64,000 nucleotides of DNA. Origin: an uncultured Candidatus Saccharibacteria bacterium. GTDB lineage: Bacteria > Patescibacteriota > Saccharimonadia > CAILAD01 > BJGX01. The position numbers and the translations under genes are program-made. This document shows, piece by piece, positions 13,751 through 39,249 of this stretch; the stretch's first letter is position 1, and each line of letters opens with the position of its first letter. The notes below the pieces were generated by a model. That model worked only from the letters and a program-made list of their open reading frames with translations. It searched no databases and was not told the origin of the DNA. The stretch spans positions 1,332 through 65,331 of the forward strand of contig CAYMHI010000003.1 in the NCBI GenBank assembly GCA_964390265.1, written 5' to 3'.

Positions 13751-14050
13751 ATGTGGCTACTAACTAAAGACAATTTTGCAATCAACTTGGCTACCGGCGC
13801 CAAATTGTACGTTACAGATCTACCAGTATCAAGGTTTAAAGCAATTTGCCTGGTACTTCCAGGCGAAAAGGAGATGAGAATCTGGCACGAAGGTAATATT
13901 GAAGCCTACCTAGCTGAAGAAGATAGAGTTAGCAAAGTATCTATCTATGATGTCTTTGGTGAGCTGGTAGGCTGCCTACGTAGGGGCGATGGCTTTAGAG
14001 AAATAGGTGAAGTTGTTGAGCTAGCAATAACAGCTATTAACTTGGAATAG
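13751..14050 (+). CDS. Hypothetical protein (99 aa), GC-shifted
   Basis: ORF track; own TATATAAT-like -10 element and RBS AAAGAGAG. Confidence 0.35.
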   Translation: MWLLTKDNFAINLATGAKLYVTDLPVSRFKAICLVLPGEKEMRIWHEGNIEAYLAEEDRVSKVSIYDVFGELVGCLRRGDGFREIGEVVELAITAINLE

Positions 14051-14189: not shown

Positions 14190-16499
14190 ATGGCAAAAAA
14201 ATTACTTATAGTAGAATCACCGGCAAAAGCCAAAACAATCGAAAAGTACCTGGGCTCAGACTACCAGGTGCTTTCAAGCTACGGCCATATACGTGATCTG
14301 CCCAAAAGTGGTATGAGTATAGATATAGAACATAATTTTGAGCCCAACTACGAGATTCCGCCAGAGTCAAAAAAAACTATAGCAGCTCTTAAAAAAGCCA
14401 CCAAAGACAAAGAAGTACTGCTAGCCACCGATGAAGACCGAGAGGGAGAAGCTATAAGTTGGCATTTGTGCGAGGCCCTAAAGCTGGACCCTAAAAGCAC
14501 TAAACGAATTGTGTTTCACGAAATCACCAAAAAAGCTTTAATAGAAGCGGTTAATAACCCTCGCAAAGTAGACTTAAATTTAGTAAATGCCCAACAAGCT
14601 CGTCGAGTATTAGATAGATTGGTCGGATACGAATTGAGCCCGGTGATATGGAAAAAAATCCGCCCTGGTCTAAGTGCTGGTAGAGTTCAGTCTGTCGCGG
14701 TGCGCTTTATAGTAGAACGCGAACGAGAAATTGAAAGTTACGTTGCGACATCTACTTATAGAGTATCTGCCGAGTTTAATCTTGGTAAAGACGGGTTATT
14801 GCTGGCCGAACTCAAAGACAAACTAGCATCACTACAAGAGGCTAATGACTTTTTGGACTCCTTAAAAAAAGCTAAGTTTACCGTGTCAGCTCTAGAGAAA
14901 AAACCTGGAAAAAAATCACCTTCACCGCCTTTTACTACCTCAACTCTCCAGCAAGCTGCTAGCTCACAACTCGGCTTTTCGGTGCGTCAAACCATGGTGC
15001 TGGCTCAGAAATTATATGAGGCTGGTAAGATTACCTATATGCGTACCGACTCACTCAATTTATCTGAGGCCTCTATAAAACACGCCGTCGATGAAATCAA
15101 AAAAAACTTTGGAGATAAATATGTAAAAACAAGGCGGTTTAAAACTAAATCGGCCGGTGCTCAAGAGGCCCATGAGGCTATTAGGCCAACGGATTTTTCT
15201 GTTGAAAAGGGCAGTGAAGACTCTGGCCAGCAACGATTATATAAACTCATACGAGCGCGTGCTCTGGCCTCACAAATGGCCGAGGCAGTGATTGAGCGAT
15301 CGGTAGTTACTATTAGCATTAGTAACTCTAAGCGTGTTTTTGTCGCCAAAGGCGAGATAGTAGTGTTTGATGGCTTTTTAAAAGTTTATGGAAAAATGGT
15401 GGATGATATTATTTTGCCGCCTCTTAGCAATGGCCAGAAGCTCGAAGCTCAAACAATCACTGCTCGTGAGACTTTTGATAGACCGCCTGCTAGATACACC
15501 GAGGCTAGCTTGGTAAAAAAACTTGAGGCTGAAGGAATAGGCCGACCAAGCACCTATGCACCTACTATTTCCACTATCCAATACCGTGAGTACGTAGTTA
15601 AAGAAAGTCGCGATGGAGAACCAAGAGAAGTGAATGTTGTTACACTTTCCAACAATAAGCTCGATAACATTATCGAGCAAGAGAATTACGGCGTTGAAAA
15701 AAATAAGCTATTCCCAACCGATACCGGTAAGGTGGTTACGGACTTTTTAGTCAAGTATTTCCCATCTATAGTAGACTATAGTTTTACCGCTAAGGTAGAG
15801 GAGGAATTTGATAAAATTGCCGAAGGTGACGAAAAATGGAACACCATGATTGCCGATTTTTACAAACCATTTCATAAATTAGTGGTTAAATCTGAAGACA
15901 TTTCGCGCCACGATGCCAACCAGGGTAGAGTGCTTGGTAAAGACCCCAAATCAGGTAAGCCAGTGATTGCGAGGCTAGGTAAATATGGAGCAATGATTCA
16001 AATAGGCCAAGCCGAGGACGAGGAAAAACCAAAATTTGCTCCTATGCCGGCCGGCAAACAGCTTGCCGACGTAACACTGCAAGAAGCTCTTAAGATGTTT
16101 GAGTTGCCTAGAGTGGTAGGGAATACACCTGAAGGTGAAGAGATTACCGCTAATTTTGGCCGGTTTGGACCGTATGTGAAGTTTGGTAGTACTTTTGTTT
16201 CTATAAAGGGCGATGATCCATTTTCTATAACTTTAAAAAAAGCCCTGGAACTCATTGCAGCAAAGAAAAAAGCCGATAAAGAAAAGGTAATCAACACCTT
16301 TGAAAAAGAAGGTATATCGGTTTTAAATGGTCGATATGGTCCATATATTACAGATGGTAAAACCAACGTAAAAATACCTAAAGATGTTGAACCTAAAACC
16401 ATTACAGCAAAGAAAGCTCAAGAGCTACTAGTAAATAAACCTGTTGGCAGGCAGTCCAAAAGAAAGCCAGCTACGAAAAAGGCAACAAAAAAGCGTTGA
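14190..16499 (+). CDS. topA: DNA topoisomerase I with Toprim domain and C-terminal basic tail
   Basis: MAKKLLIVESPAKAKTIEKYLG Toprim N-terminus; catalytic Tyr region; 769 aa. Confidence 0.85.
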   Translation: MAKKLLIVESPAKAKTIEKYLGSDYQVLSSYGHIRDLPKSGMSIDIEHNFEPNYEIPPESKKTIAALKKATKDKEVLLATDEDREGEAISWHLCEALKLDPKSTKRIVFHEITKKALIEAVNNPRKVDLNLVNAQQARRVLDRLVGYELSPVIWKKIRPGLSAGRVQSVAVRFIVEREREIESYVATSTYRVSAEFNLGKDGLLLAELKDKLASLQEANDFLDSLKKAKFTVSALEKKPGKKSPSPPFTTSTLQQAASSQLGFSVRQTMVLAQKLYEAGKITYMRTDSLNLSEASIKHAVDEIKKNFGDKYVKTRRFKTKSAGAQEAHEAIRPTDFSVEKGSEDSGQQRLYKLIRARALASQMAEAVIERSVVTISISNSKRVFVAKGEIVVFDGFLKVYGKMVDDIILPPLSNGQKLEAQTITARETFDRPPARYTEASLVKKLEAEGIGRPSTYAPTISTIQYREYVVKESRDGEPREVNVVTLSNNKLDNIIEQENYGVEKNKLFPTDTGKVVTDFLVKYFPSIVDYSFTAKVEEEFDKIAEGDEKWNTMIADFYKPFHKLVVKSEDISRHDANQGRVLGKDPKSGKPVIARLGKYGAMIQIGQAEDEEKPKFAPMPAGKQLADVTLQEALKMFELPRVVGNTPEGEEITANFGRFGPYVKFGSTFVSIKGDDPFSITLKKALELIAAKKKADKEKVINTFEKEGISVLNGRYGPYITDGKTNVKIPKDVEPKTITAKKAQELLVNKPVGRQSKRKPATKKATKKR

Positions 16500-16621
16500 C
16501 CTTATACAACTAAAGTGATATAATTTAACTAAGTAATTTGTTAATTTGTCATATGTAGTATATGGACTTTAATAAATCTGCAAAATATTATCATTGTTAT
16601 AATTAATAGGAACGTAAACTT

Positions 16622-17689
16622 ATGCCAATTAAGAAACAAAATGTAAGTCAAAAACAGCTAGATTCACTTATTAATGACAGTCTTGAGTTACTCAAAAAAG
16701 ACCGAGATAGAGAGATATTACTACGACGCTACGGTGTAGCCACTGGTAAAACCCAAACTCTAGAACAAATTGGCCAAGACTTAGGCATTACTCGTGAACG
16801 TGTTCGACAGATAGAGAAGGCAGCTATCACCAAGATTCGCGAGCAAGCTCGTCACGATCATGAACTAAATGACATATTAGTAGCTATTACCAATGAAAAG
16901 GGCGGAATAATTGGCTTCGCCTCGCTAATAAATGAACTCGGCCTTGATGGAAAGCAACGTCCGCACTTAAGTTTTTTACTCAAACTTAACCCCAACTTTA
17001 CCTTTTTAGACCGTAGTGATCAGCACGCTGATTTGGTGTTTCTAAGTGACAGCTACAAAGAGGATGGGGTACGTAAATTACACGAACAAATCATAACTGT
17101 CGCCAAAGAGAGTGGCAAACCAGTTAAATTTGATAAATTAGTCAGTAAAATTAGCGGTGAGCACAAAACACAATCACTGCAAGAGCTAGCAGCGGCCAGC
17201 ACCCAGTTAGCTCAACTAGATAACGTATGGGGGTTAAGCATATGGCCTGAGGTCAACCCTAAAAGCATTCGTGACAAAATATATTTGGTACTCAAAAAGG
17301 GTGGTCGCCCAATGCACTTTACCGAAATTTCTACAAAAATAGAGGTAATGCCTGCCAACCCCAAAAAAGTTACTACTCAAGCCGTGCACAATGAGCTTAT
17401 TAAAGACTCTAGATTCGTGCTGATTGGTCGAGGTATTTACGCACTAGGCGAATGGGGCTATCAAAGCGGCACGGTTGCCGATATAATTGAAGAAGTACTA
17501 CGAGAAAATTCACCAATTAGCAGAGAAGATATTATTACTCAAGTTTTGGCTCGCAGACAAGTCAAAACTACCACTATCACGCTAAATCTGCAAGAAAAAC
17601 CGCAATTCGTACGTACCAGCAATGGCGATTATCAGCTCAAAAAGGGCTATAAGCCCAGCCCTAGCAAAAGCCGTCGCGGCGGTCGGTAA
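16622..17689 (+). CDS. DNA-binding protein with N-terminal sigma-70 region-4-like HTH and C-terminal HARE-HTH-like domain(s)
   Basis: LLRRYGVATGKTQTLEQIGQDLGITRERVRQIEKAAITKIR (sigma r4 pattern); MHFTEISTKIE...DSRFVLIGRGIYALGEWGY (RpoE-delta/HARE-HTH pattern). Confidence 0.5.
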   Translation: MPIKKQNVSQKQLDSLINDSLELLKKDRDREILLRRYGVATGKTQTLEQIGQDLGITRERVRQIEKAAITKIREQARHDHELNDILVAITNEKGGIIGFASLINELGLDGKQRPHLSFLLKLNPNFTFLDRSDQHADLVFLSDSYKEDGVRKLHEQIITVAKESGKPVKFDKLVSKISGEHKTQSLQELAAASTQLAQLDNVWGLSIWPEVNPKSIRDKIYLVLKKGGRPMHFTEISTKIEVMPANPKKVTTQAVHNELIKDSRFVLIGRGIYALGEWGYQSGTVADIIEEVLRENSPISREDIITQVLARRQVKTTTITLNLQEKPQFVRTSNGDYQLKKGYKPSPSKSRRGGR

Positions 17690-17757
17690 CTAAAAGCCGA
17701 TTACAAATTTTTATATATTTACCTTAACTTGTTCCGTCTTATTTTAAATAGCACCTC

Positions 17758-20475
17758 ATGAATACTTTGCTCTCATTTATTTCAACTTCTATAGCCGTGA
17801 TTGGTACAATTCTTTTTCAGTTTTGGGGCTGGACGCTAATTGCTGCATATCTTATATTTATGATATGGAAGAATAACCAAAAAGTTGAGTACATCAAAAC
17901 ATCCGAACATAATCTACTCCACATAGTGGTTCCCAAAGATAACGAAAAAAAAGAACTCTCGGCCGAGCAAATGTTTGCCAGCCTACACGGCATATTGCAA
18001 TCTACTAGCGAGTTAACCCAAGAGAAACGCATACAAGACCATATAAGTTTTGAAATTGTCGCTCGCGACTCAGTAATTCATTTTTACGTATGGACGCCCA
18101 AACAACTTAAAGACTTTGTGACTAGCCAAATCTATGCACAATATCCTACCGTGCAAATTAGTGAGATGGCTCATGACTATGCCGAGCAAGAAGGTTTAGA
18201 CCCCAACCGAGTATATTCTACCGAGATTACCCTTATTAAAGACGAAATATTTCCTATAAGAACTTTTCAAACCTTTGAGGTTGACCCCTTGGCTGGCCTA
18301 ACGACCGTGTTGGCCTCAATAACCGAAGGTGAACAGTTGTGGATTCAATTCTTGATGGAGCCAGTAGATGATAGCTGGCACAAAAAAAGTCTGCAATACA
18401 TTAGTGAGATAGTGAATGGTAAAAAACCCGGTAGATTCGAGAATCTTGGTGCTAAATCGTTGGTAGCTATTAAGGCTCTCTCGGTACCACCCAGCGTTCA
18501 AGCCGCCAATGATAAAAAACCCGAAAAAAAAGAGCTTAGTCCTGGGCAAACTACACTCAACTCTGCTATCGAAACTAAGGCCGAAAAGCTCGGCTACGCT
18601 GTAAAAATTAGAGCTGTCTACGTTGGCGACAACGACACTGCCGCCAAAACTCGTATGCAAGCTCTCGTAGGAGGCTTTAAGCAATTCAACACGATTAACC
18701 TAAATGGTTTTACTAATACTGGTCTACTTAACGGCGAGGCCGCTTTAAAACAGTATCAAGAGCGTGAATTTGATGATGCCGGATATGTACTGAATATTGA
18801 AGAAATTGCAAGTCTTTATCACTTACCGCACACCAGTGTAGAGACTCCAGGTGTGGCCTACACTAGCACCAAGGTGGGAGAGCCGCCCAGCAATCTACCA
18901 ACCGTTAACAACACTCCAGCTAAGGATATAAGCTTGTTTGGTGTTACCACATTTAGGCAAGCTAATATTAAGTTTGGTATCAAACGCGAAGATCGCAAAC
19001 GTCATATGTATATCATTGGTAAATCCGGAAGTGGTAAATCATTCTTGCTTAATCTTTTAACCCTATCTGACATCTACCATAACGAAGGTTTTGCAGTAGT
19101 CGACCCTCACGGCGATTATGCTCAAGATATGTTGCGCTACATACCCGAACACCGCCTAGACGATGTAGTATACTTCAACCCCGCCGATGGTGAATTTCCG
19201 GTGGCCTTTAATCCAATGGAAGTTTATGATGTCAATCGCCGAAGCAACGTTGCCTCCGAAATTGTTGGGGTACTGAAAAAAATGTTTGGTGACAGTTGGG
19301 GGCCACGACTTGAGCATATCTTGCGCTATACACTACTTGCATTACTAGAAACCCCTAACACAACCCTCTTGGGCATTACCAGAATGCTAACCGATAAAAA
19401 ATATCGAAATGAAATAATTGCTAACGTTCAAGACCCGGTTGTAAAAGCCTTTTGGATAAATGAATTTGCCAGCTGGAACGATAAATTCGCCTCTGAGGCT
19501 GTAGCGCCGGTACTTAACAAGGTTGGAGCTTTCACTGCCAACCCTTTAATTCGTAATGTTATTGGTCAAGAAAAAAGTACCTTTAGTATTCGTAAAATGA
19601 TGGATGAAGGCAAGATCTTAATTGTCGATCTTAGTCGCGGTAAAATAGGTGAAGACAATGCCAGTATATTAGGTAGTCTACTGATTACAAAGATTCAGCT
19701 TGATGCTATGAGCCGAGCCGATATACCTAATATTGATGATCGCCGGCCGTTTTATCTATATGTCGACGAATTTCAAAATTTTGCTACTGAAAGTTTTGCC
19801 GTAATTCTGTCTGAAGCTCGAAAATACGGACTGTATTTAACGGTAGCTAATCAATATATTGCCCAAATGCCCGAAGAAGTAAGGGATGCAGTATTTGGTA
19901 ATGTAGGTAGTATGATTACTTTTAGAGTGGGCGCCGAAGATGCTACTAGCTTAGCCCGTTACTTTGAACCTGTATTTGAGCCTCTAGATTTAGTAAATTT
20001 GGATAAACAAGATATATACGTTAGTATGAGCATTGACGGTCAAACTAGTCTGCCTTTCTCAGCAAAGACTCTATTTGTACCTAAATCTCCATCTGATCAA
20101 TCGGCTAAGATTTTGGAACTAAGTCGCCATAAATACTCAAGCGGTAAAGCCAGCGTAGAAGACGCTATCGCGAAATGGAGCGGTATGAATGAAGAAAAAC
20201 CTACCGATAACTCGGGTGGGGGATCAAATACCGAACAAAAAATTGCCGGTACCGCTGCTAGCTTGCCATCGCTTAGAGTGAGTGGAGCCGAGCCCAAAAA
20301 ATACAGCGAGATGGTAAAAGGTAAAAGTCAAAATATTAATAATCGCCAAAACCAACCTTATAGACCTAATAATAATCAAGGTGGTGGTCAACGCCGCGAC
20401 GACAACCGAAGGGGCAATAACTCTAGTAGCCAAGGCGGCCATAATAAACCATTCTACCCCAAAAAGAAAAACTAG
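17758..20475 (+). CDS. Membrane-anchored FtsK/HerA-superfamily ATPase of the TraG/TraD/VirD4 type-IV-coupling-protein type. It has a roughly 380-aa unknown domain between the N-terminal TM hairpin and the NTPase, and a C-terminal Gly/Asn/Gln/Arg-rich disordered tail.
   Basis: Two N-terminal TM segments; Walker A IIGKSGSGKSFLLNLL about 420 aa in; Walker B-like YLYVDEFQNF about 240 aa later (spacing typical of T4CPs); low-complexity tail NNRQNQPYRPNNNQGGGQRRDDNRRGNN. Confidence 0.55.
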   Translation: MNTLLSFISTSIAVIGTILFQFWGWTLIAAYLIFMIWKNNQKVEYIKTSEHNLLHIVVPKDNEKKELSAEQMFASLHGILQSTSELTQEKRIQDHISFEIVARDSVIHFYVWTPKQLKDFVTSQIYAQYPTVQISEMAHDYAEQEGLDPNRVYSTEITLIKDEIFPIRTFQTFEVDPLAGLTTVLASITEGEQLWIQFLMEPVDDSWHKKSLQYISEIVNGKKPGRFENLGAKSLVAIKALSVPPSVQAANDKKPEKKELSPGQTTLNSAIETKAEKLGYAVKIRAVYVGDNDTAAKTRMQALVGGFKQFNTINLNGFTNTGLLNGEAALKQYQEREFDDAGYVLNIEEIASLYHLPHTSVETPGVAYTSTKVGEPPSNLPTVNNTPAKDISLFGVTTFRQANIKFGIKREDRKRHMYIIGKSGSGKSFLLNLLTLSDIYHNEGFAVVDPHGDYAQDMLRYIPEHRLDDVVYFNPADGEFPVAFNPMEVYDVNRRSNVASEIVGVLKKMFGDSWGPRLEHILRYTLLALLETPNTTLLGITRMLTDKKYRNEIIANVQDPVVKAFWINEFASWNDKFASEAVAPVLNKVGAFTANPLIRNVIGQEKSTFSIRKMMDEGKILIVDLSRGKIGEDNASILGSLLITKIQLDAMSRADIPNIDDRRPFYLYVDEFQNFATESFAVILSEARKYGLYLTVANQYIAQMPEEVRDAVFGNVGSMITFRVGAEDATSLARYFEPVFEPLDLVNLDKQDIYVSMSIDGQTSLPFSAKTLFVPKSPSDQSAKILELSRHKYSSGKASVEDAIAKWSGMNEEKPTDNSGGGSNTEQKIAGTAASLPSLRVSGAEPKKYSEMVKGKSQNINNRQNQPYRPNNNQGGGQRRDDNRRGNNSSSQGGHNKPFYPKKKN

Positions 20476-20576
20476 AATTGCATTTGAGTTATTGCCTAAG
20501 TATTGACTTATTATAGTATTTATGCTATCATATTTACGTACCCATTTAGTCCCCAATACAGAAATGAGCAAGATCG

Positions 20577-20936
20577 GTGCCTACCAAACCCATCACTCTC
20601 GCTGTAATACTGGGCCTGTGCCTAACCCTCCTGGTGAGCTGTAGCCACAAGACGACCGAAGCGAAGTCGTCTGTTGTGCTGCCTCACCTGGCCGTCAGCA
20701 CGACGTCAACAGCACCGGTGCATCACTACGCACCAGGTTACACCGTAGAGGCCACCTGTGCCTTCTCAGTGAATATCTGTGTGCCTACCAACAGCGCAGT
20801 AACCCAGAGTATTCGCTCGCCACAGATTGCCCCCAATGGCAGTGGCGAGTATGCACCACAGGTTCGTCTGGAAGACGGTTCAACCTGTGTGTGGATGACA
20901 GATTTCCACGACTACCTGTGCTCGCGCCCAAAGTAG
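20577..20936 (+). CDS. Putative lipoprotein (119 aa) with 6 Cys in the mature part. GTG start. Strongly GC-shifted relative to neighbours.
   Basis: Signal peptide with lipobox LVSC; local GC about 53% versus about 40% in flanks; followed by a hairpin terminator. Confidence 0.4.
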   Translation: MPTKPITLAVILGLCLTLLVSCSHKTTEAKSSVVLPHLAVSTTSTAPVHHYAPGYTVEATCAFSVNICVPTNSAVTQSIRSPQIAPNGSGEYAPQVRLEDGSTCVWMTDFHDYLCSRPK

Positions 20937-20942
20937 TCAACC

Positions 20943-20990
20943 GCCGCCCTACACCATCAACGATGATGGAGTGGGGCGGCTTTCATTTAT
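20943..20990 (+). terminator. Rho-independent terminator (imperfect 9-bp plus 6-bp compound stem, T-rich tail CTTTCATTT)
   Basis: GCCGCCCTA...TGGGGCGGC pairing with inner CCATCA/TGATGG seen in the sequence. Confidence 0.5.
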
Positions 20991-21917
20991 GAACTATATT
21001 AAATACCGAATAGGGGAGCGGGCTAACAAATACCGAACTGCGGATAGTATAAATAATGTGGTAGATTGTTGGTATAGTAGTTTTTAGTATCAAGACATAA
21101 TCCGCACCTGAAAGGATGGAGATGATCAATCAAAACTACAAACTCCAATTAGCCTAGAACGCTTCCCCTATCTTTTGTATTGATTTTCAATTCACTATTC
21201 CCTACCATCATTCTGCAGTAGTAATAGAGAAGCAATAAAATTTCTCATTGCAAAATCACACCGTAATTGGTCGCGCAGCTTTGACGGCTATCCTAGCTAA
21301 TTATATTGCGGCGCCTGATTAATATGTAAACACCCAACGCAAAACATTTACAATGAGCGCCAAGCTGACTACAGTAGCAAACGTGCTAGCCCTATTACCA
21401 ACTCTTCGCAATAGTTGAGGGTATCTTAAATGCTTTGTCGTCAATGGGGATGTATGATAAATCAACTTAGGTTAATAATAAACTTAGTCGCACAATGTTT
21501 ATTTTGCGACGTATACTATCTATTTAACTAATAAATACATTTTAGCAGATTATTTGTTTATTATATCATCAAATTTTTGTTCCCTGTTTTTCTCCCCTGT
21601 TATATGCCGTTACAATTTGTTGTGGTAACGTAGCCTATATATAGAATATAACATATATAGTAGTAAACATAAACCGAACATGCCACAGTAGTATTGGTAG
21701 CATGACTTTAGCAGTTTTTTACAGACCATTTGAACGAGGTAGTATTTTTACAAATTCTTGTTTCTATATACTTTTTACATTTTACATATATTATGAGCTA
21801 CTAGCTGTCTTTTTTATGTCTTTTACAAAATAGTTATCCACAATCAGCCGTGAAACATTATATATTGTACGTTGTATTTTATACAATGCTGTTTCTCTAC
21901 TCTAATTAAGCTCTTCC

Positions 21918-22739
21918 CTACTTATAAAATACTCGGCCGTTTATTCTTAGATCAATATATTCAGCAGGTTTTTTTCCTTGTTTTTTAAGCTCATCAAGCA
22001 CGGCAACCAAATCTGTTAATTGATCGTTTACAGATCGTGTTGTATCAAATCTTATCTTATAACCAGATTGAGTAACTACGTATAGGTCTGTGGTAGTCTC
22101 TTGAACCTGATATTCGCTTACCGCTACTCCCTTCTCAGGTAATCTGCTATGCAACTCCCCTACAAAAGATACAAATGACTCTGTAAGTGACTTCTCCCCT
22201 GTTTTGACTGGCAAGTTTGATGTATCCACTACTGTTGGTAAACTTTTTTTGAGCTGCTCGCTCGGCTCGCCGCTATATGCATGGCCATTGCTGGCAAAGA
22301 CAGAAAGCGTATTGCCAGATCGCCAAAGTATGCTCGGTTTTTGTTCGGTTATTGTTATTTTAACAGTATTAAATAATTTTCGCTCTATCTTGGCTTTTGA
22401 TATTTGATAATTATTCTTTTTTAGGTTTGTTTCAATGGTTTGCCCAGGTACAAACAAAATGTTTTGATTTATAAGCGAACTGTTAATTACTTCTAGGGCT
22501 TGGTTTTTAATTGTATCCTCACTAAGCGTTTGGTTGCCCGAAACTTCAATGTACTTAACTCTAAACAAGCTAGAAATTACTATGCTGTAAAACATTAAAA
22601 TTATTATTGCAGCATAAATACTAAGACGTAATATCTTCTTAAAAAGACTATAATTGGCTTTCTTGGTTGGCTGTTTTAGATTTTTATAACCTACTTGGTT
22701 AGATTGAGATGAGTACCTTACCCTTCGCTTAGTTGACAT
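21918..22739 (-). CDS. ftsQ: FtsQ/DivIB-like cell division protein (single TM plus POTRA-like domain)
   Basis: N-terminal TM (LSIYAAIIILMFYSIVISSLF), then VKYIEVSGNQTLSEDTI POTRA-like start; last gene of the dcw cluster. Confidence 0.5.
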   Translation of the reverse strand: MSTKRRVRYSSQSNQVGYKNLKQPTKKANYSLFKKILRLSIYAAIIILMFYSIVISSLFRVKYIEVSGNQTLSEDTIKNQALEVINSSLINQNILFVPGQTIETNLKKNNYQISKAKIERKLFNTVKITITEQKPSILWRSGNTLSVFASNGHAYSGEPSEQLKKSLPTVVDTSNLPVKTGEKSLTESFVSFVGELHSRLPEKGVAVSEYQVQETTTDLYVVTQSGYKIRFDTTRSVNDQLTDLVAVLDELKKQGKKPAEYIDLRINGRVFYK

Positions 22740-32788: not shown

Positions 32789-33508
32789 CTACAAATCATT
32801 ACCTTGAAAAACTTTGGTGCTTTTAAATTTAATATCAAAATGATATTCATAGTAGCGCATAAGTAACTTCTCACCTTCTTCAATTGCGTGGCTAATATTC
32901 TGTAATTTAGCAAGACTACTAAGTTGATGTGACAATATTAATCGCCATAGCTTAATTGTAGGTATAGAAATTATGCCATAGTGGCCCTGCGGCCTAGATC
33001 TAGATAATTTACCCGACCCGTATACCAAATAATGATTATTACCTAGCTTTGTATCGGTTAAATCTGGTTGATTACCAGTTGAGCTTAAAAAATTAAGACC
33101 AAAGTATTGACGAACCAGCAAAGCATCTACTCCAGTATGCAGAGCTCGTAAACATTCTGTAACTAAATTTATAGCTGTTGTGTTAGGCTCCCCTTCGGCT
33201 GATAATTTTCCTAAAATTTCTATTATTAAATAAGCTGTTTGAAGGGCTTGCGAACTCAATTTTGATAAATCAGACAATTCTATTGCTTCCGCACCAATAA
33301 TAATATCTAAATTTCTACCTTTGGTGAGTCTTATCTTGCAAAGCGTAAATGGCTCTAAGTGTCCGGCTAGTTTTGCCTGGGCCTTCCTAACCCCCTTAGC
33401 AATTGTCTTTTGTTTACCCTCTTCAATGCTAAATATTGTTATTATGCGATCAGCTTCACCAAGATTTTGATGATGAATAATATAACCAGTCAGCTCCCTG
33501 TACTTCAT
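32789..33508 (-). CDS. recO: DNA repair protein RecO
   Basis: N-terminal OB-fold pattern GYIIHHQNLGEADRIITIFS; Cys/His cluster absent (short form). Confidence 0.65.
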   Translation of the reverse strand: MKYRELTGYIIHHQNLGEADRIITIFSIEEGKQKTIAKGVRKAQAKLAGHLEPFTLCKIRLTKGRNLDIIIGAEAIELSDLSKLSSQALQTAYLIIEILGKLSAEGEPNTTAINLVTECLRALHTGVDALLVRQYFGLNFLSSTGNQPDLTDTKLGNNHYLVYGSGKLSRSRPQGHYGIISIPTIKLWRLILSHQLSSLAKLQNISHAIEEGEKLLMRYYEYHFDIKFKSTKVFQGNDL

Positions 33509-33897
33509 TGTTCTTTATTTAATGATAGTAAGTGCCCAATATTTTTTACCAATTGCCCTGGTGTTATGCGTGTTTTTACATAGTAGGCATCTACGCCTAA
33601 GCTATCACGTACGCTATTATGCAGATTAATATCTGGCTGAGTAAGATTAGTTAATATAACTATCTTGGTTTTTTTAAGGTTAATATTTTGTCGCATTGAC
33701 TTAATTAATGCTATTCCGTTAGTGCCAGGCAAGAGAATATCTACAATCACACAATCTGGGGTATTTTTTACTAGCCAATCAAGCGCGGCTTTGGCATTAT
33801 TTTTTGTAGTTAGCTTATAATTTGCATTAGTAAATTTGAGTTTATACATTTCACTCAAAATTTTATCTTCTTCTACTAAGAGAATACTCGGTTTCAT
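33505..33897 (-). CDS. Single-domain response regulator (CheY-like receiver). Its stop overlaps the recO start (ATGA).
   Basis: LLVEED acidic pocket; phospho-acceptor Asp in CVIVDILLPG; conserved T/K positions. Confidence 0.6.
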   Translation of the reverse strand: MKPSILLVEEDKILSEMYKLKFTNANYKLTTKNNAKAALDWLVKNTPDCVIVDILLPGTNGIALIKSMRQNINLKKTKIVILTNLTQPDINLHNSVRDSLGVDAYYVKTRITPGQLVKNIGHLLSLNKEQ

Positions 33898-33907
33898 TTA
33901 CTTAACT

Positions 33908-34639
33908 CTACTCCTTTAACGGCGATTCATCAAATACATTGAGCTGCCGCGCAAGCGGGACATGAATATATAAAAACTGCTGATTTTGCACCAACTTTGT
34001 TGTAATTGTTACATTTAAGCATTGGAGTATTGCTACTACGTAGCCACACACAATCAAATCTAGATTCATATTTTTGATTGGCCCAAGGTATTTGGTGGAG
34101 TTTGAAAACACATGAAAAATATCTTTTTCGAGCCAAGAGTGCTTGGGTGCTCTAATGGTAATAACGCCATAGCGAGCACTTTTTCTAAAACCTAGAGTTA
34201 GTCTTTTGGTTGTCGTAAAAGCAGTTAGTAAAACACCAAGGGTTTGGGCTAATGCCCCAAGCTGAGTATAAATAAGTATTTTGTCGTTAATACTATTCAT
34301 ATTAAACTTAACACCTTCAAAATTTTTATAAATCTCTTCAACCAGCTGCTTGAAATAAAAGCTTTTACTAGCACTCTCCTCTAGACCAGTAAGAATTTGT
34401 AACGAATCAAGTAACACTACAGTTTGATGATAATTTTTAGTTAACCGAGTAAGTTGACCAATTATAGACCGTTGTTTGGAGTTAGCCTTGAGGTTCAATT
34501 CCTCTAGGTATCCCAGCATGGCTCGCTCAGAATTATTAATGTTCTTTGTGATGCCAAAAAGTGTAAATGTTAGGCCATTTTGGGCGCTCCATTCTTTCTT
34601 TACTGCATCAATACTGTTTATACCCTCCAAGATCTTCAT
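33908..34639 (-). CDS. Hypothetical protein with a degenerate RecA/KaiC-like fold (pseudo-ATPase lacking an intact Walker A)
   Basis: Aligns by eye to the KaiC-domain pattern: GINSIDAVKK...GLTFTLFGITKN occupies the Walker A position, and VVLLDSLQIL resembles the Walker B / hhhhDS motif. Confidence 0.35.
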   Translation of the reverse strand: MKILEGINSIDAVKKEWSAQNGLTFTLFGITKNINNSERAMLGYLEELNLKANSKQRSIIGQLTRLTKNYHQTVVLLDSLQILTGLEESASKSFYFKQLVEEIYKNFEGVKFNMNSINDKILIYTQLGALAQTLGVLLTAFTTTKRLTLGFRKSARYGVITIRAPKHSWLEKDIFHVFSNSTKYLGPIKNMNLDLIVCGYVVAILQCLNVTITTKLVQNQQFLYIHVPLARQLNVFDESPLKE

Positions 34640-34700
34640 TACTATCTAGACTAACTGCTACAGCAAGTTGTTGGCAAGCATTAGCAATAATGTGTGTTAG

Positions 34701-35414
34701 CTATGGATTGAGGTGAACATTTTTGACGATAGCGTTAAATACATCTATATAGGTGGCGTTATCGTCGGTCTGAATAGTAAATGTTTTATCACGTAAAGGA
34801 ACCATTACGATTGTACCGTTTGGAATTTTAGTACCAATTTGTCCGGTATATCGCATACCTTTAATGCCTGAAACTGTGGTTTCTTCGGCCGTTACTTTTC
34901 TTTTGGCTACAACTTTTTCTTGAGCTAAAGTATCGAGAGGCTTTTTGAGTGAATCGATTGATTTTTCAGCCAGAGCAAATCTTAGGGCATATTGAGTCAG
35001 CTTGGTGTTTACTTCGTCAGGCATAGCAATTCCAGAGATAGTATTACCACTATCTTCTGGCGTGGTAGTGAGACTCCATGATTTGGGAATATCTATAGTG
35101 AAGCTGCCAGCGGCCTCAGGGGCAGTGTAGGTTCTAAAATCAGCATTGAGTTTTTTTGCAAATTGCTCTTCATCGAGTTTCTTTTGGGCCGTCGCACCCT
35201 CATTTTGGCCTTGTTTTAGGGTTGCAGCAATTTTGTTGTCATTGATAAAAGCCTTAGCGCCAAATACCATAACCAATATTAATAATATTGCAGCCACTCC
35301 ACCAAGAACCATCAGCAAAGTCTTATAGAGCTTTTCTTTTTTGTTGCCAGGGTTACCGTCAGGTTTACTGGTAGGTACTTCTGGAAGATTATTGTATGGT
35401 ACTTGGGGGTCCAT
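34701..35414 (-). CDS. Membrane-anchored/secreted hypothetical protein (N-terminal TM after a Pro/Gly/Lys-rich cytoplasmic head)
   Basis: ORF track; single hydrophobic segment LLMVLGGVAAILLILVMVFGA. Confidence 0.35.
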   Translation of the reverse strand: MDPQVPYNNLPEVPTSKPDGNPGNKKEKLYKTLLMVLGGVAAILLILVMVFGAKAFINDNKIAATLKQGQNEGATAQKKLDEEQFAKKLNADFRTYTAPEAAGSFTIDIPKSWSLTTTPEDSGNTISGIAMPDEVNTKLTQYALRFALAEKSIDSLKKPLDTLAQEKVVAKRKVTAEETTVSGIKGMRYTGQIGTKIPNGTIVMVPLRDKTFTIQTDDNATYIDVFNAIVKNVHLNP

Positions 35415-35420
35415 GATATA

Positions 35421-35942
35421 TTAAAGGTTCTTTTGCCCTGGCTCCCAGTCTATTGGACACAATCCACCCGTCTGCAAAGCCTTCACTACTCTCATAGTTT
35501 CGTCCACGCTACGACCTACATTACTATCAGATATCACTACGTATCGCAGATTGCCTTCAGGGTCAATAATAAACGTTCCTCTTTCGGCTTCGCCATTTTG
35601 CTCATTTAAAACCTCGTAGTCACGTGACAGCTGGTGGTTAGTATCGGCCAAAACCGGAAACTCTACATCTGACAAATCACGCTCAAACCAAGCTTTATGC
35701 GAGTGTACGCTATCGGTACTTACTCCTAAAATCTCTGTGTCGATTTTGGCAAACTCCTTGGAGTGCTTGGCAAAACCATTTATTTCGGTTGGACACACAA
35801 AAGTGAAATCTCGGGGATAAAAGAAAAGCACCACCCACTTACCTTTGTAATCTTTTAAGCTAACTTCTTTGAAATCATCTTTTAATCTCTTTTGATATGC
35901 CGGGACTGAAAATTCTGGTGCGGGTTGATTTAGTTTTAACAT
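35421..35942 (-). CDS. Peroxiredoxin (AhpC/TSA family)
   Basis: Peroxidatic Cys motif FTFVCPTE. Confidence 0.75.
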   Translation of the reverse strand: MLKLNQPAPEFSVPAYQKRLKDDFKEVSLKDYKGKWVVLFFYPRDFTFVCPTEINGFAKHSKEFAKIDTEILGVSTDSVHSHKAWFERDLSDVEFPVLADTNHQLSRDYEVLNEQNGEAERGTFIIDPEGNLRYVVISDSNVGRSVDETMRVVKALQTGGLCPIDWEPGQKNL

Positions 35943-35951
35943 AATTTTCTC

Positions 35952-36605
35952 CTATTGTTTTTTGTTAAATGTAGGAATATTTTGTTCTATTCGCTTATTG
36001 ACAATATTCCAATCTATTAATTGCATAAAAGCCTCAATATAACCTTTGCGAGCCGTTGCATAATCTAAGAAATAGGCATGCTCATACACGTCAAGTACCA
36101 ACAACGGCACGGTAGACCATATACCACCTTGGTTGTGAACATCGCATATATAGTTATCTACGGTTCCTGCTTCGTAATCCCAGGCTAGCACTACCCAGCC
36201 ACGCGAAGCCAATCCCATAGCTGCAAACTGGTCGGCCCATGTATAAATACTACCCCATTTATCTTCTATTAACTCTTTTATTGCACCAGCACAATCTTGT
36301 CTTTGGTCGGTCATATTCTCAAAGTACCACTCGTGTAATTTAACGCCGTTTAGGGCAAACCCCTTTTCAAGCTGTAACTCACGAAGTTCAGAATATGTTG
36401 CATTTGCAAGCTTATTGTCGACTTTTTCAAGTAATTCGACTATTTCATTGTATTTATTGACATAGCCAACGTACAAAACATCGTGGTGCTCTTGGAGTTG
36501 TTTTTGCGATATACCCTCGAGCTCGATATATTTTAACGGTTTTGGTTCTAGTTTTTGTAATTTACTCATGAGTCTATTGTAGCTTAAACCATAACTACTA
36601 GTCAA
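35952..36605 (-). CDS. Fe/Mn-family superoxide dismutase
   Basis: C-terminal DVYEHAYFLDY (the D-x-W/Y-E-H-A-Y-Y-L-D-Y SOD signature); N-terminal HH pair. Confidence 0.7.
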   Translation of the reverse strand: MTSSYGLSYNRLMSKLQKLEPKPLKYIELEGISQKQLQEHHDVLYVGYVNKYNEIVELLEKVDNKLANATYSELRELQLEKGFALNGVKLHEWYFENMTDQRQDCAGAIKELIEDKWGSIYTWADQFAAMGLASRGWVVLAWDYEAGTVDNYICDVHNQGGIWSTVPLLVLDVYEHAYFLDYATARKGYIEAFMQLIDWNIVNKRIEQNIPTFNKKQ

Positions 36606-37084
36606 AACTTATAAAAATGCGTGTTTTTATTTTTATAAGTAATTTGAGTATTGGGCAGTTCAAATACAAAGCTAGCAAAGTAGCTACCAGTCTTCATTTC
36701 GCTACGAAGCTTCTCTTCTAGCTTTTGCATATGTTTGGTTAATAAAAAAGTAAATACCAAGTCTGCATTTGAAATGTCAGCCCTCCAAAAACTTTTAAAC
36801 TTGACCTTGGCATTAGGATACCTTCGCAGTCTATAAACCGAAATTAACCATAAATATGGGTTGATTTCATAACCAACGGCCCTATAGCCTTTTTGCGCGG
36901 CTAATAACACCATTCTGCCGTCACCCGAGCCTAAATCAATTACCAAATCATTTTTAGCAAGTTTTACTTTGTTAAATATTTGTTTTAAAAATTTTGTGTT
37001 GGTTGGCACGTATGGTGCCCCAAAAAATATTGAGTAACAATACAATAGTACAAGTACACCTGCTACACAGTATAGAATAATCAT
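36602..37084 (-). CDS. Small membrane-anchored class I SAM-dependent methyltransferase-like protein
   Basis: Motif I VIDLGSGDGRMVLLAA and acidic post-I (GYEINP); N-terminal TM. Confidence 0.4.
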   Translation of the reverse strand: MIILYCVAGVLVLLYCYSIFFGAPYVPTNTKFLKQIFNKVKLAKNDLVIDLGSGDGRMVLLAAQKGYRAVGYEINPYLWLISVYRLRRYPNAKVKFKSFWRADISNADLVFTFLLTKHMQKLEEKLRSEMKTGSYFASFVFELPNTQITYKNKNTHFYKF

Positions 37085-37101
37085 ATATATTCCTTGGTAG
37101 A

Positions 37102-37569
37102 TTACTTATTTTCTTTTAGCCACTTTTCTACTTCACTCACCGTTTTGAGTGGTTGAATCTTGGGCCAAGCATGTAGAATTTCTAAATTTGGCCCTACAAG
37201 GACGGCTGAGCGAATTATTCCCATAAACTTACGTCCATACATGCTCTTTTGGCCCCAGGCTCCATAGGCTTCAATCATTTTAGTGCTAGGATCGGCCAGA
37301 ATAGTAAATGGTAACTTATGCTTTTGAGAGAATTTTAAATGACTGGCTACATCGTCTTTACTTACACCAATTACGTCAATCCCCTTGGCTTGTAGGCTTT
37401 CAAAATTATCACGTAAACTACAAGCTTGAGCTGTGCAGCCTGGCGTTTCGTCTTTGGGGTAAAAATATATCAGAGTAGTTTTACCCATTATGTCTTTTAA
37501 ACTATTCGGGATGTTGTTTTGATCTAATAATTTGTAATCTGGTGCTTGATCGCCCGCTTCTAATGCCAT
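37102..37569 (-). CDS. bcp: Thiol peroxidase Bcp (thioredoxin-dependent peroxiredoxin)
   Basis: YFYPKDETPGCTAQAC active-site motif. Confidence 0.75.
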   Translation of the reverse strand: MALEAGDQAPDYKLLDQNNIPNSLKDIMGKTTLIYFYPKDETPGCTAQACSLRDNFESLQAKGIDVIGVSKDDVASHLKFSQKHKLPFTILADPSTKMIEAYGAWGQKSMYGRKFMGIIRSAVLVGPNLEILHAWPKIQPLKTVSEVEKWLKENK

Positions 37570-37573
37570 ATTT

Positions 37574-38320
37574 CTAGTTCCTCTCTCTTAAGTACTGATC
37601 CCACTTATGAAACAGTGCCGTGGTGGCCCGTAAATCATCAACATTGTAACGAGCTATCTCTAGGCCTTTTCCGGCCTTATAATACTCGCCTACCTGGCTG
37701 CCGTCCATTTCGCCCTTAGGCGAATCAATACCAAAAGCCCTGCACCACCGGTGTAAGCTGCCTCTATACATCGCTGTGCCATAAAAGCTCAATAGCTCGG
37801 CTAGATCATAATGTACTGCGCCTGGGTACCTGCTTGAGTTGTAACGATTAGATATAAGGTCTTTGCTGGGGCGAATACTGTGAATGGCCGAGCGAATATT
37901 GATATATGGTACATCTGAGCGACGCCCAAAAAAACTTATAAATTCATCAGCCGTTTCAGCCAAAGCCCAAAACTTTACCAATATTTCAGGCTCAGTCATC
38001 GGTACGTATTTGATATCACCTTCTTCTAAATCTTTTTGTTTCCCACTAGGGTCTTGATAATATACTGCACCCTTCTCGGTATCTATATCGTACACGCCAA
38101 TTGCCACAATAAATCCCGTGAGGGGGCTAAAAACCAATTTATCTTTTACATACTCAAGTTCTTTTTCGTACCCCTTGGGGTCTTCTTTTTTATCTGGCGC
38201 CTGTTTAAGTAAATCTTTTTGGGTAATGGCGTCAAAATCATCCCAGTTTTCGGCCGCAAACTCTACATCGAATACTAATCTTTTTTTCTGCATTGGTTTA
38301 TTATACTCGACCTCAAACAT
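37574..38320 (-). CDS. RNase H-like 3'-5' exonuclease-fold protein (DEDDy-type, PolB-exo/YprB-like)
   Basis: Exo I-like LVFDVEF and Exo III-like YNVDDLRATTALF (Y-x3-D). Confidence 0.4.
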   Translation of the reverse strand: MFEVEYNKPMQKKRLVFDVEFAAENWDDFDAITQKDLLKQAPDKKEDPKGYEKELEYVKDKLVFSPLTGFIVAIGVYDIDTEKGAVYYQDPSGKQKDLEEGDIKYVPMTEPEILVKFWALAETADEFISFFGRRSDVPYINIRSAIHSIRPSKDLISNRYNSSRYPGAVHYDLAELLSFYGTAMYRGSLHRWCRAFGIDSPKGEMDGSQVGEYYKAGKGLEIARYNVDDLRATTALFHKWDQYLRERN

Positions 38321-38379
38321 TATTCCCAGTACCTAAGAATATGATTGGTCATTCAGAAGGTATTTTTACTTACATTATA

Positions 38380-39249
38380 TTAAACCACTTTCTCTATCCA
38401 ATTAAGCAATTGTTCTAGTGAGAGATGCTTTTCAATATTGTGGTACTCAAAAAATTCATTTGGGAAAAATAATAATGCTTTTAAATTTAGGCTACCAATA
38501 TCAGCAAGTAATTGTATATTTGCTTGAGTGACATATTTTGAAAAGTCGCTTGTTTTTTCTGGTGCAATACTTGAGCGCGCGGCAATATTAACGAAAGGCG
38601 CGCAATATGGGACTCTAAATTTTTTATTTGCTAGACTCACCACTAAGCCACCCTGTTTGGCGCCAAAGATATAATCCCTGGGATCGGTAAGCTCAAGTAA
38701 ATCATCAGGTTGATAGTAAACACAAGCGTCAATATAGTGCGAATCAATTAATTGTGTGCTCGAAACTCCCGTAATAACAGAGTGGATCACCATCCCTTGT
38801 TTCTCTAAAAAATCAATCATGAATTTTAGGGTACTACCAGTATACACATCGTCTTCAAGTATACCGAATTCGTTGCCATACAATGCAATTACCTGTTTTG
38901 ATTGATTGACCAACTCATCAAAGCCGGGGCGTGAAGTAATATCTATCTGTTTACTCGTGGCATAGTTAAATCGCCTACTAACTCCAAATGGAATACCAAG
39001 CTTACTTTGTGAGTCGAAATTAAGATACTTCTTGGTGCTATTTAGCTTTGCAGATTTCTGCTTTTCAAGTTGTGTAAAGCTATGCAATTCTATCTTAACA
39101 GGCTCTCTCAGACACATATTTATTGCATCTACAAGAGCTAATATAAACTTGTCATAAGCAGTCTTAAGTTTGTTGGGTGGAATGATATTACTTGCCAGAC
39201 AACCTATTACTGTTTCAGGTTTTTCGGTTCTTAATGCGTATATTTTCAT
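38380..39249 (-). CDS. Phosphoribosyltransferase-domain protein of unknown specificity
   Basis: PRPP-binding-like motif ILEDDVYTGSTL. Confidence 0.35.
   Translation of the reverse strand: MKIYALRTEKPETVIGCLASNIIPPNKLKTAYDKFILALVDAINMCLREPVKIELHSFTQLEKQKSAKLNSTKKYLNFDSQSKLGIPFGVSRRFNYATSKQIDITSRPGFDELVNQSKQVIALYGNEFGILEDDVYTGSTLKFMIDFLEKQGMVIHSVITGVSSTQLIDSHYIDACVYYQPDDLLELTDPRDYIFGAKQGGLVVSLANKKFRVPYCAPFVNIAARSSIAPEKTSDFSKYVTQANIQLLADIGSLNLKALLFFPNEFFEYHNIEKHLSLEQLLNWIEKVV

Follow-up and report, generated by a model that had tools for sequence, protein, structure and literature searches.

A conserved gene pair of Patescibacteria encoding a helix-turn-helix protein and a candidate membrane-anchored coupling ATPase with a predicted VirB4-like N-terminal domain

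A 64,000-nucleotide stretch of DNA from an uncultured Candidatus Saccharibacteria bacterium (contig CAYMHI010000003.1), hereafter the window, carries two adjacent genes at positions 16622–20475, one for a 355-amino-acid (aa) DNA-binding helix-turn-helix (HTH) protein and one for a 905-aa ATPase. They constitute a two-gene module of the core chromosome that is conserved across Patescibacteria and under purifying selection. By analogy with TrwB and VirB4, we propose that the ATPase is a membrane-anchored coupling or translocation motor with a nucleic acid or nucleoprotein cargo, the conduit probably being a type IV secretion system (T4SS) encoded elsewhere; we put the probability of this reading at roughly 0.5. 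A first-pass annotation of the window had placed the two genes in an accessory block together with a downstream lipoprotein gene. The three open reading frames (ORFs) lie where it had located them, at 16622–17689 (355 aa), 17758–20475 (905 aa), and 20577–20936 (119 aa, GTG start), as do the Walker motifs of the ATPase; the block itself did not hold up. The features of the module are as follows:

16496–16524, forward: sigma-70-type promoter-like site 5′ of the HTH gene (TTGACC, 17-nt spacer, TG-extended TATAAT)
16622–17689, forward: HTH partner gene, 355 aa, with Sigma70_r4 and HARE-HTH (Pfam) and a basic C-terminal tail
16700–16843, forward: Sigma70_r4 of the HTH partner, residues 27–74 (Pfam)
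17273–17455, forward: HARE-HTH of the HTH partner, residues 218–278 (Pfam)
17681–17702, forward: weak hairpin and T-run (terminator-like scan; 7 pairs, 3 of them G-C; weak evidence)
17758–20475, forward: 905-aa membrane-anchored ATPase, VirB4/VirD4 superfamily
17767–17868, forward: N-terminal hydrophobic anchor, residues 4–37 (hydropathy windows)
17905–18900, forward: DUF8128 (PF26449), residues ~50–381, with a predicted VirB4-N-terminal-domain-like fold, ending at EE.A..YH.P...G.PP..LP
18928–20181, forward: P-loop ATPase domain, residues ~391–808
19018–19041, forward: Walker A (G421–S428)
19753–19770, forward: Walker B (Y666–E671)
20191–20472, forward: disordered Gly/Asn/Gln/Arg-rich C-terminal tail, residues 812–905 (predicted local distance difference test, pLDDT, <50)

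More than 6,200 homologues of the 905-aa protein were found; the best 120 are full-length, share 55–100% identity with it, and come nearly all from Saccharibacteria or other Patescibacteria. The gene order topA, HTH gene, ATPase gene, and then a convergent division and cell wall (dcw) cluster is repeated in relatives of 57–87% identity. We compared the window genes by tblastn with 80 loci from different GTDB species, among which the HTH gene was found at 59, topA at 49, murG at 36, and the lipoprotein ORF at none. Seventy-three loci have at least 1.3 kb of upstream sequence, and at 55 of these the HTH gene lies directly upstream of the ATPase gene, on the same strand and within 700 bp; in these linked loci, the two genes are mostly less than 100 bp apart or overlap. 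The spacing in the window is 68 bp, and the weak hairpin at 17681–17702, which falls in this spacer, could be a partial terminator or attenuator. Relative to near-identical strain contigs, the ATPase gene has five synonymous differences (seven in a second contig) and no nonsynonymous ones, and the HTH gene differs from that of a sister strain at 12 synonymous positions and one nonsynonymous position. In base composition, neither gene departs from the genome around it. The promoter-like site at 16496–16524 agrees with the consensus at 11 of 12 positions and is the top-scoring site within 16300–22000, as a consensus match only. Immediately 3′ of the ATPase gene, a structure search for a terminator gave nothing significant, and within the window no paralogue of either gene was found.

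These data bear directly on the three-gene accessory block of regulator, ATPase, and lipoprotein, which might have been, for example, the remnant of a mobile element. Relatives of the ATPase do occur on plasmids and phages, and the lipoprotein stretch is foreign in composition. However, the HTH and ATPase genes have native composition and keep the same chromosomal place, between dprA–glmS–topA and the dcw cluster, in relatives of 55–87% protein identity, and no relative outside the same strain carries the lipoprotein ORF. Synteny and co-occurrence together refute the block, to which we attach hardly any probability; of the proposed co-occurrence, what survives is the pairing of the HTH and ATPase genes, without the lipoprotein.

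The pair has been seen before. In Candidatus Southlakia epibionticum ML1, SEML1_0293 (ATPase) and SEML1_0294 (HTH) likewise lie side by side, and topA is found two genes upstream (PMC10633639). There, SEML1_0293 carries PF10412, PF12696, and PF01935 at the residue positions of the window protein, the published annotation assigning just a P-loop domain (residues 361–795) and leaving the N-terminal domain without a name, whereas SEML1_0294, labelled “RpoS”, carries PF04545, PF05066, and three winged-helix domains (PMC10633639). In the accompanying transposon sequencing (Tn-seq) study, both were marked as core, Patescibacteria-enriched families, and SEML1_0294 was essential, with 24 insertions in the input DNA and 1–2 afterwards (PMC10633639). 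Since the gene downstream is dispensable, we infer that this essentiality is not a polar effect. Quinonero-Coronel et al. (2025) counted 5,713 VirD4-like homologues in 2,918 Patescibacteria genomes (PMC12102498). Given these orthologues and counts, the existence of the family and its orphan status were already known.

What kind of ATPase is it? TrwB_AAD_bind (38.1 bits), DUF87 (37.8), and TraG-D_C (22.9) exceed their Pfam cut-offs in the 905-aa protein, and the FtsK_SpoIIIE match falls under its own. This agrees with the first-pass view of a membrane-anchored P-loop ATPase resembling type IV coupling proteins (T4CPs). That view would have been in difficulty had the NTPase domain belonged with HerA or FtsK, and by sequence it does not: the best PDB profile matches, which are also the only solved relatives by sequence, are TrwB and DotL, so that T4CPs rank first. 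The protein nevertheless falls far under every named NCBIfam T4CP or VirB4 equivalog. The T4CP models TIGR03743 (TraD), CD1115-type VirD4, and TIGR03754 give 47.8, 38.8, and 29 bits against cut-offs of 366, 250, and 648, and the VirB4 models TIGR00929 and TrbE give 12.2 and 11.6 bits against cut-offs of 643 and 1020. In an alignment of 27 homologues with 56–87% identity to the window protein, Walker A and Walker B are unchanged in all 27. Structural comparison of the ATPase domain gave the following scores and numbers of aligned residues:

DptH C-domain: 25.7, 324 residues
TrwB: 25.6, 361 of 420 residues
VirB4 C-terminal domain: 24.5, 326 residues
DotL: 22.3, 360 residues
HerA: 21.9, 340 residues
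Cag-beta (VirD4): 20.8, 372 residues
FtsK: 17.4, 250 residues
TcpA: 17.2, 240 residues

Full-length TrwK aligns with the 905-aa model over 498 residues, exceeding any single-domain match, which means that both domains match and do so in the same order. Between Walker A and Walker B, the AlphaFold model has a helical block (residues ~492–617); the length of the TrwB alignment suggests that the block is included in it.

The DptH match, together with a PADLOC match to mad8 (E 7e-18) and weak HerA matches, raises the question of whether the protein could be an anti-phage defence ATPase of the HerA, MADS, or DptH type, and the Southlakia ATPase gene does neighbor CRISPR-Cas9. Yet the matches to defence families are restricted to the common P-loop domain, and no nuclease, Sir2, or methylase partner is found near the ATPase gene. 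Defence genes are typically patchy and variable. The ATPase gene, on the contrary, is core, single-copy, and syntenic, with strong purifying selection over thousands of genomes. We rejected a defence role on account of this distribution, which shows none of the patchiness of genomic islands, and regard it as highly improbable.

Ahead of the motor, residues ~50–400 are already named PF26449/DUF8128 in precomputed Pfam annotations. The first-pass annotation was right that the protein has an extra domain, which it described as an unknown insert of ~380 aa; the domain is a named one, however, and it leads the protein rather than being inserted in it. Its predicted structure resembles the N-terminal domain of VirB4, with a TM-score of ~0.4. 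When 24 DUF8128 proteins were scanned with Pfam for a link to VirB4, TraC, or TrsD, nothing matched inside DUF8128. Similarly, the first-pass annotation had read the N-terminus as a transmembrane (TM) hairpin. A hydrophobic anchor is indeed present, but the sole strongly hydrophobic segment of the protein is a single stretch of 34 residues (4–37) and not a hairpin; AlphaFold models the region as one long helix (residues 2–48), and G24 and W25 are invariant among the 27 aligned homologues. From sequence and model, one TM helix cannot be told apart from two. The C-terminal tail is predicted to be disordered, in agreement with the first-pass annotation, and is variable except for a short motif, G..PK.YS (20254–20283, residues ~833–842), whose P837 is nearly invariant in the alignment. 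This motif may be a linear interaction motif, by analogy with the partner-binding tails of classical coupling proteins. With moderate confidence, based on the model, the 905-aa protein consists of an anchor, a VirB4-N-terminal-domain-like DUF8128, and a TrwB-like motor, so that its layout is VirB4-like and its ATPase T4CP-like.

The two domains are not always in one protein. An exhaustive search with DUF8128 alone returned 2,216 cluster representatives at E ≤0.001. Among the best 150 of these, 37 are fused to the ATPase, at least 25 are complete standalone proteins (~415–425 aa), and a further 78 are short and have no P-loop. The standalone proteins stop just past EE.A..YH.P...G.PP..LP, which corresponds to window residues 348–381. 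Three other lineages of Patescibacteria have the order secD, secF, a Sigma70_r4 protein (261–343 aa), a DUF8128 membrane protein (414–420 aa), and ATPase (501–636 aa), with secD–secF rather than topA upstream (L092:6853–11216, L095:5158–8771, L096:5191–10900); in one of them, four small genes lie between DUF8128 and the ATPase. At the L096 locus, secA is also nearby. Fusion in some lineages and adjacent but separate genes in others argue that DUF8128 and the ATPase act together. Since a sigma-region-4 gene precedes the split forms too, sigma region 4 is what remains constant in the partner, and the module is older than the split between these lineages. That the partner keeps its position across fused and split forms is guilt-by-association evidence for its being a partner at all.

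Relatives of the ATPase are also carried by phages and plasmids. Residues 73–814 match phrog_5156 (E 5e-89), a PHROGs family of unknown function that includes the phage homologues. Using tblastn, we found relatives of ~25% identity over ~700 residues in 77 phage records, among them large Bacillus phages (gp156 of phage G, ORF201 of 0305phi8-36, and gp27.4 of SPO1) and the thermophilic phage D6E (ORF23), as well as relatives in 468 plasmid records, mainly from Bacillus, Streptomyces, Staphylococcus, haloarchaea, and Sulfolobus. Of these plasmid records, 387 are typed as non-mobilizable. On a 24.7-kb plasmid of B. subtilis MH-1, the homologue WP_121549396 is followed by genes for a replication-relaxation protein, a conjugal transfer protein, a TcpE-family protein, and a large ATP-binding protein. 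It heads a conjugation-like module, which is the position expected of a coupling protein. In phage G, a lytic jumbo phage, gp156 follows a P-loop gene, gp155, annotated as “VirB-like” (L090:3330–7472). DUF8128 is present in both WP_121549396 and gp156 (hhalign probability 99.4–99.5%). Near the plasmid and phage homologues, the sigma-region-4/HARE-HTH partner was not found.

The 355-aa partner was described earlier as a dual-HTH protein, and rightly so, as Sigma70_r4 (51 bits) and HARE-HTH (PF05066, 40 bits) both exceed their Pfam cut-offs. Its homologue search gave at least 8,000 matches; among the matches listed, 120 of 120 have Sigma70_r4 and 118 of 120 HARE-HTH. NCBIfam sigma models match over only their final ~70 residues, far under the cut-offs. 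Because sigma region 2 was not detected with Pfam, the partner is not a full sigma factor. Against TIGR04567, the delta subunit of RNA polymerase (RNAP), it scores 40.5 bits with a cut-off of 42.

An RNAP- and promoter-binding module (sigma region 4) joined to a delta-like HARE-HTH in an essential protein might suggest that the module is a regulatory pair, in which the ATPase would sequester, remodel, or export the partner as a transcription factor, thereby linking envelope or host contact to gene expression in a manner analogous to FlgM and sigma-28. The operon linkage of partner and ATPase is preserved over deep lineages, split forms included, and the absence of the partner near plasmid and phage homologues implies that the pairing arose within Patescibacteria, which also speaks for such a pair. 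There is, however, no known precedent for a T4CP-like ATPase as an anti-sigma device, and with a dispensable ATPase and an essential partner, such control would not be required for growth. We consider a regulatory pair improbable.

How, then, might a coupling motor work? The biology of TrwB and VirB4, from which the analogy is drawn, is established for those families. The ATPase would be a ring-shaped motor at the cytoplasmic membrane, coupling ATP hydrolysis to the handover of a substrate, most likely nucleic acid or nucleoprotein, into a membrane conduit. DUF8128 would serve as a docking platform for membrane partners, as the N-terminal domain of VirB4 does on VirB3 and VirB8. The HTH partner would either present DNA to the motor, in the manner of TrwA and TraM, or control the operon, and together with the basic disordered tail it may engage the nucleic acid or nucleoprotein substrate. 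The conduit would probably be the T4SS of Patescibacteria, whose genes lie elsewhere on the chromosome in a cluster without its own coupling protein. In the Southlakia T4SS cluster, recognizable coupling and relaxase proteins are missing (Wang et al. 2023, PMC10633639), and a 2025 review includes VirD4-like components in its list of T4SS parts in Patescibacteria.

Several observations weigh against the coupling-motor proposal. In the Southlakia Tn-seq data, SEML1_0293 is non-essential at three time points, but the T4SS cluster is essential (PMC10633639), so the essential T4SS function has no need of the ATPase. An essential partner of a non-essential ATPase must have a role beyond serving it. 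Just 148 of the 5,713 T4CP homologues of Patescibacteria lie near virB4 (PMC12102498). The larger window ORFs scanned, about 33 of the 55 of at least 150 aa, include no relaxase, and no VirB4 or pilus genes either, which upholds the orphan status noted in the first pass. A sequence link between DUF8128 and VirB4 is absent, the DUF8128 profile having no match in the PDB, and their kinship is structural only, at moderate confidence in the predicted fold. Finally, loci L046, L061–L065, L068–L075, L077, L080, and L081 have no HTH gene within 6 kb, and among loci L061–L081 it was still not found within that distance at relaxed thresholds; in this clade, the partner gene has either moved elsewhere or been lost. 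The ATPases of the HTH-less Saccharibacteria group have ~51–55% identity and a divergent N-terminus, and topA is directly upstream in L062, L063, and L065.

The first-pass annotation had suggested that the ATPase may act in DNA uptake or host interaction; its Southlakia orthologue is not needed to grow on the host. The Tn-seq data also bear on a role in DNA uptake, in which the ATPase would pull incoming DNA through ComEC during natural transformation, much as ComFA does in Firmicutes, with the partner and the basic tail binding DNA. Natural competence of Saccharibacteria relies on ComEC and type IV pili, according to a passage of a review that cites Wang et al. (2023), and a word search of the Southlakia annotation tables did not find “ComFA” named anywhere. 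As Tn-seq mutants arise by transformation, a competence gene scores as non-essential, as comEC does. In addition, dprA is ~7 kb upstream of the module, and the 905-aa protein has weak NCBIfam matches to CedD and CedB, two ATPases of archaeal DNA import. The CedD match, however, is confined to the P-loop region and reaches 33 bits against a cut-off of 600. A dprA–topA neighborhood is a common arrangement in many bacteria, and in the split lineages secDF takes its place; conserved linkage of the ATPase to comEC or pilus genes was not seen. In outgrowth, normalized reads of SEML1_0293 drop ~fourfold, from 5817 to 2940 to 1372, whereas those of comEC stay flat (PMC10633639), which argues for a role beyond competence. 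DNA uptake is thus possible but unlikely.

It is tempting to go further and propose that the module is the missing cytoplasmic-membrane motor and adaptor of the pilus-bearing T4SS, importing host RNA or DNA into the epibiont as archaeal Ced imports DNA, or that it exports or sequesters the essential sigma-like partner and so ties transcription to host contact. A T4SS without a coupling protein, a basic disordered tail that seems well fitted to bind nucleic acid, the core and enriched status, and the fourfold drop in reads during outgrowth on the host are all compatible with these roles, and the open question of how host RNA enters Patescibacteria leaves room for an import role. The idea is speculative, and we give it only a small chance of being correct; if true, the module would be a trait that defines the lineage, a conjugation ATPase adapted to parasitic life.

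Downstream of the module lie the following features:

20503–20980, forward: strain-specific GC-rich unit outside the conserved module (promoter-like site, 119-aa ORFan, terminator-like hairpin)
20503–20531, forward: promoter-like site of the lipoprotein unit (consensus scan)
20577–20936, forward: lipoprotein ORFan, 119 aa, GTG start
20943–20980, forward: strong hairpin with U-rich tail (z = -5.2)
21487–21510, no strand: dif-like imperfect palindrome GTCGCACAATGTTTATTTTGCGAC, part of the module context and not a component

The 119-aa ORF has a lipoprotein-type signal, and its sequence MPTKPITLAVILGLCLTLLVSC includes LVSC at residues 19–22, which fits the lipobox pattern [LVI][ASTVI][GAS]C. The GC shift and separate terminator described earlier are real: the ORF has a GC content of 0.56 and a third-codon-position GC content (GC3) of 0.62, compared with a GC3 of ~0.37 in neighboring genes, and the hairpin is strong. 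It differs from the sister strain at no synonymous and four nonsynonymous positions, and it has one homologue among 5.8 billion proteins. Only near-identical strains carry it, relatives at 86–87% identity lacking both the ORF and the GC-rich stretch around it, and gene callers left it uncalled on the near-identical contigs L001 and L002. A search of the GC-rich stretch and the downstream gap against Rfam found no credible non-coding RNA at gathering thresholds or at E ≤1. We rejected it as a member of the module because of its absence from all 80 surveyed loci, its substitution pattern, and its single homologue. It may nonetheless be a real, fast-evolving surface lipoprotein outside the module.

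The ~1 kb from the ATPase stop to the dif-like site (20476–21486) is strain-specific, with a GC-rich patch at 20600–21000 (GC 0.51–0.60). In relatives of 86–87% identity, the same gap holds unrelated sequence, 853 bp in L087 and 1,426 bp in L088, the latter with a GC-rich patch and small TM ORFs; it looks like a variable insertion hotspot. In most relatives, the dif-like site is 88–500 bp past the ATPase stop, and given the longer distance in the window, the GC-rich unit looks like an insertion between them. A second dif-like copy bounding the insert, the signature of integrative mobile elements exploiting Xer (IMEX), was not found with up to five mismatches allowed.

The dif-like site itself is a 24-bp imperfect palindrome with the consensus GTCGCACAATGT(A/T)TATTTTGCGAC in an alignment of 13 copies. 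It is unique in the window, where 0 matches are expected by chance, and in 35 of 90 loci it is present in one copy, invariably 3′ of the ATPase gene in the interval where this gene and ftsQ converge (e.g., L010:8793, L005:12905, L087:11176). A dif site is expected to be a ~28-bp, single-copy site near the replication terminus, with arms at positions 7–12 and 17–22 that form >4 complementary pairs; the palindrome criterion and the E. coli dif sequence were taken from PMC3025954. In the core found here, CACAAT-GTAT-ATTTTG, five of six arm pairs are complementary, and 14 of 16 positions agree with the E. coli dif core, the central TGTATA being common to both. The site sits where gene orientation flips from plus to minus, with a weak GC-skew signal. 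Because of the likeness to E. coli dif, the complementary arms, and the orientation switch, 21487–21510 probably represents the Xer/dif site of the replication terminus in these Saccharibacteria.

This location could be taken to mean that the ATPase is a pump of the chromosome terminus, an FtsK-like translocase for segregation or dimer resolution. It belongs to the FtsK/HerA/TrwB superfamily, and in many Saccharibacteria its gene is just upstream of the dif-like site and convergent with ftsQ–murG–ftsW. On the other hand, neither the dif-like site nor the dcw cluster is beside the gene in the split lineages or in Southlakia, where Cas9 and GNAT genes are downstream. Southlakia, moreover, encodes a canonical, essential FtsK with alpha, beta, and gamma domains, which excludes the ATPase as an FtsK substitute. 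A terminus pump is therefore very unlikely.

Beyond the module, the flanks consist of housekeeping genes: der, pth, dprA, glmS, and topA lie on the 5′ side, and ftsQ, murG, ftsW, mraY, and ftsI converge from the 3′ side; the remaining large ORFs scanned are ordinary chromosomal genes. The glmS–topA gap contains a 99-aa ORF (13751–14050) without a Pfam match and without a counterpart in the 80 species loci. In relatives, this gap holds other small genes; in L088, for example, the product is a 111-aa protein that weakly matches RNA_pol_A_CTD, and in L003 it is one of 101 aa that weakly matches Flp_Fap. Farther away, nine consecutive small-to-medium ORFs occupy the minus strand at 33505–39249. 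The three that were scanned (33908–34639, 34701–35414, and 38380–39249) have no Pfam match at E ≤1e-5; others resemble, by eye, a response-regulator receiver, a peroxiredoxin, a superoxide dismutase of the Fe/Mn type, and a Bcp-type thiol peroxidase, so that the run may be a cluster for oxidative stress.

Patescibacteria account for a large part of the diversity of bacteria and spend their lives attached to bacterial hosts; the module, as one of the core enriched families, bears on the open question of how macromolecules are exchanged between the two. The existence of the ATPase family, its orphan status, and its dispensability have been published. The present analysis adds a structural interpretation of DUF8128, the fusion and fission evidence, the depth to which the HTH pairing is conserved, the homologues on plasmids and in phages, and the dif-like palindrome. 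In the literature searched, the VirB4-like fold of DUF8128, the split forms, and the HTH pairing are not discussed, and the searches for “DUF8128”, for “HARE-HTH” with “Patescibacteria”, and for “dif site” with “Saccharibacteria” turned up no paper.

How does the pair compare with known systems? Like the T4CPs TrwB of R388, VirD4/Cag-beta, and DotL, the 905-aa protein has an N-terminal anchor and a TrwB-type P-loop domain with Walker A and Walker B, as well as, in the model, a helical block that may correspond to their all-alpha insertion. Unlike them, it has an extra ~330-residue DUF8128 between anchor and ATPase, scores below the T4CP equivalog cut-offs, and is chromosomal and core. Its genetic neighborhood lacks the association with a relaxase and a T4SS channel, no such neighbors being present among the window ORFs scanned. 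HerA, FtsK, TcpA, and EccC have lower structural scores than TrwB or VirB4; the HAS-barrel of HerA and the alpha and gamma domains of FtsK were not detected in the protein, and its FtsK/SpoIIIE match is the sub-threshold one mentioned above.

As to the partner, the RNAP delta subunit (RpoE) of low-GC Gram-positives has an N-terminal HARE-HTH and a long acidic tail, whereas in the 355-aa protein the HARE-HTH is internal and the C-terminus basic (KSRRGGR), which sets it apart from the delta subunit. The Southlakia orthologue bears the name “RpoS”, but members of the sigma-70 family combine regions 2 and 4, and only the latter was detected in the 355-aa partner.

The likeness to VirB4 and TrwK is in the predicted arrangement, an N-terminal domain followed by a RecA-like C-terminal ATPase. 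In contrast to VirB4, the 905-aa protein has its own anchor, does not match the VirB4/CagE/TrbE sequence profiles, and has no VirB3, VirB6, or VirB8 genes nearby; Patescibacteria encode a separate canonical VirB4 besides it. The DUF8128-ATPases of Firmicutes plasmids and large Bacillus phages have the same two-domain architecture, but they reside on mobile elements, next to conjugation-type or “VirB-like” genes and without the HTH partner, whereas the 905-aa protein is chromosomal. By joining a VirB4-like N-terminal domain to a TrwB-like motor, this one protein bears on the evolution of both T4SS ATPase paralogues. Closest of all is the orthologous pair SEML1_0293/SEML1_0294, from which the window pair differs in nothing substantive, and since Southlakia is genetically tractable, the hypotheses set out here can be tested directly.

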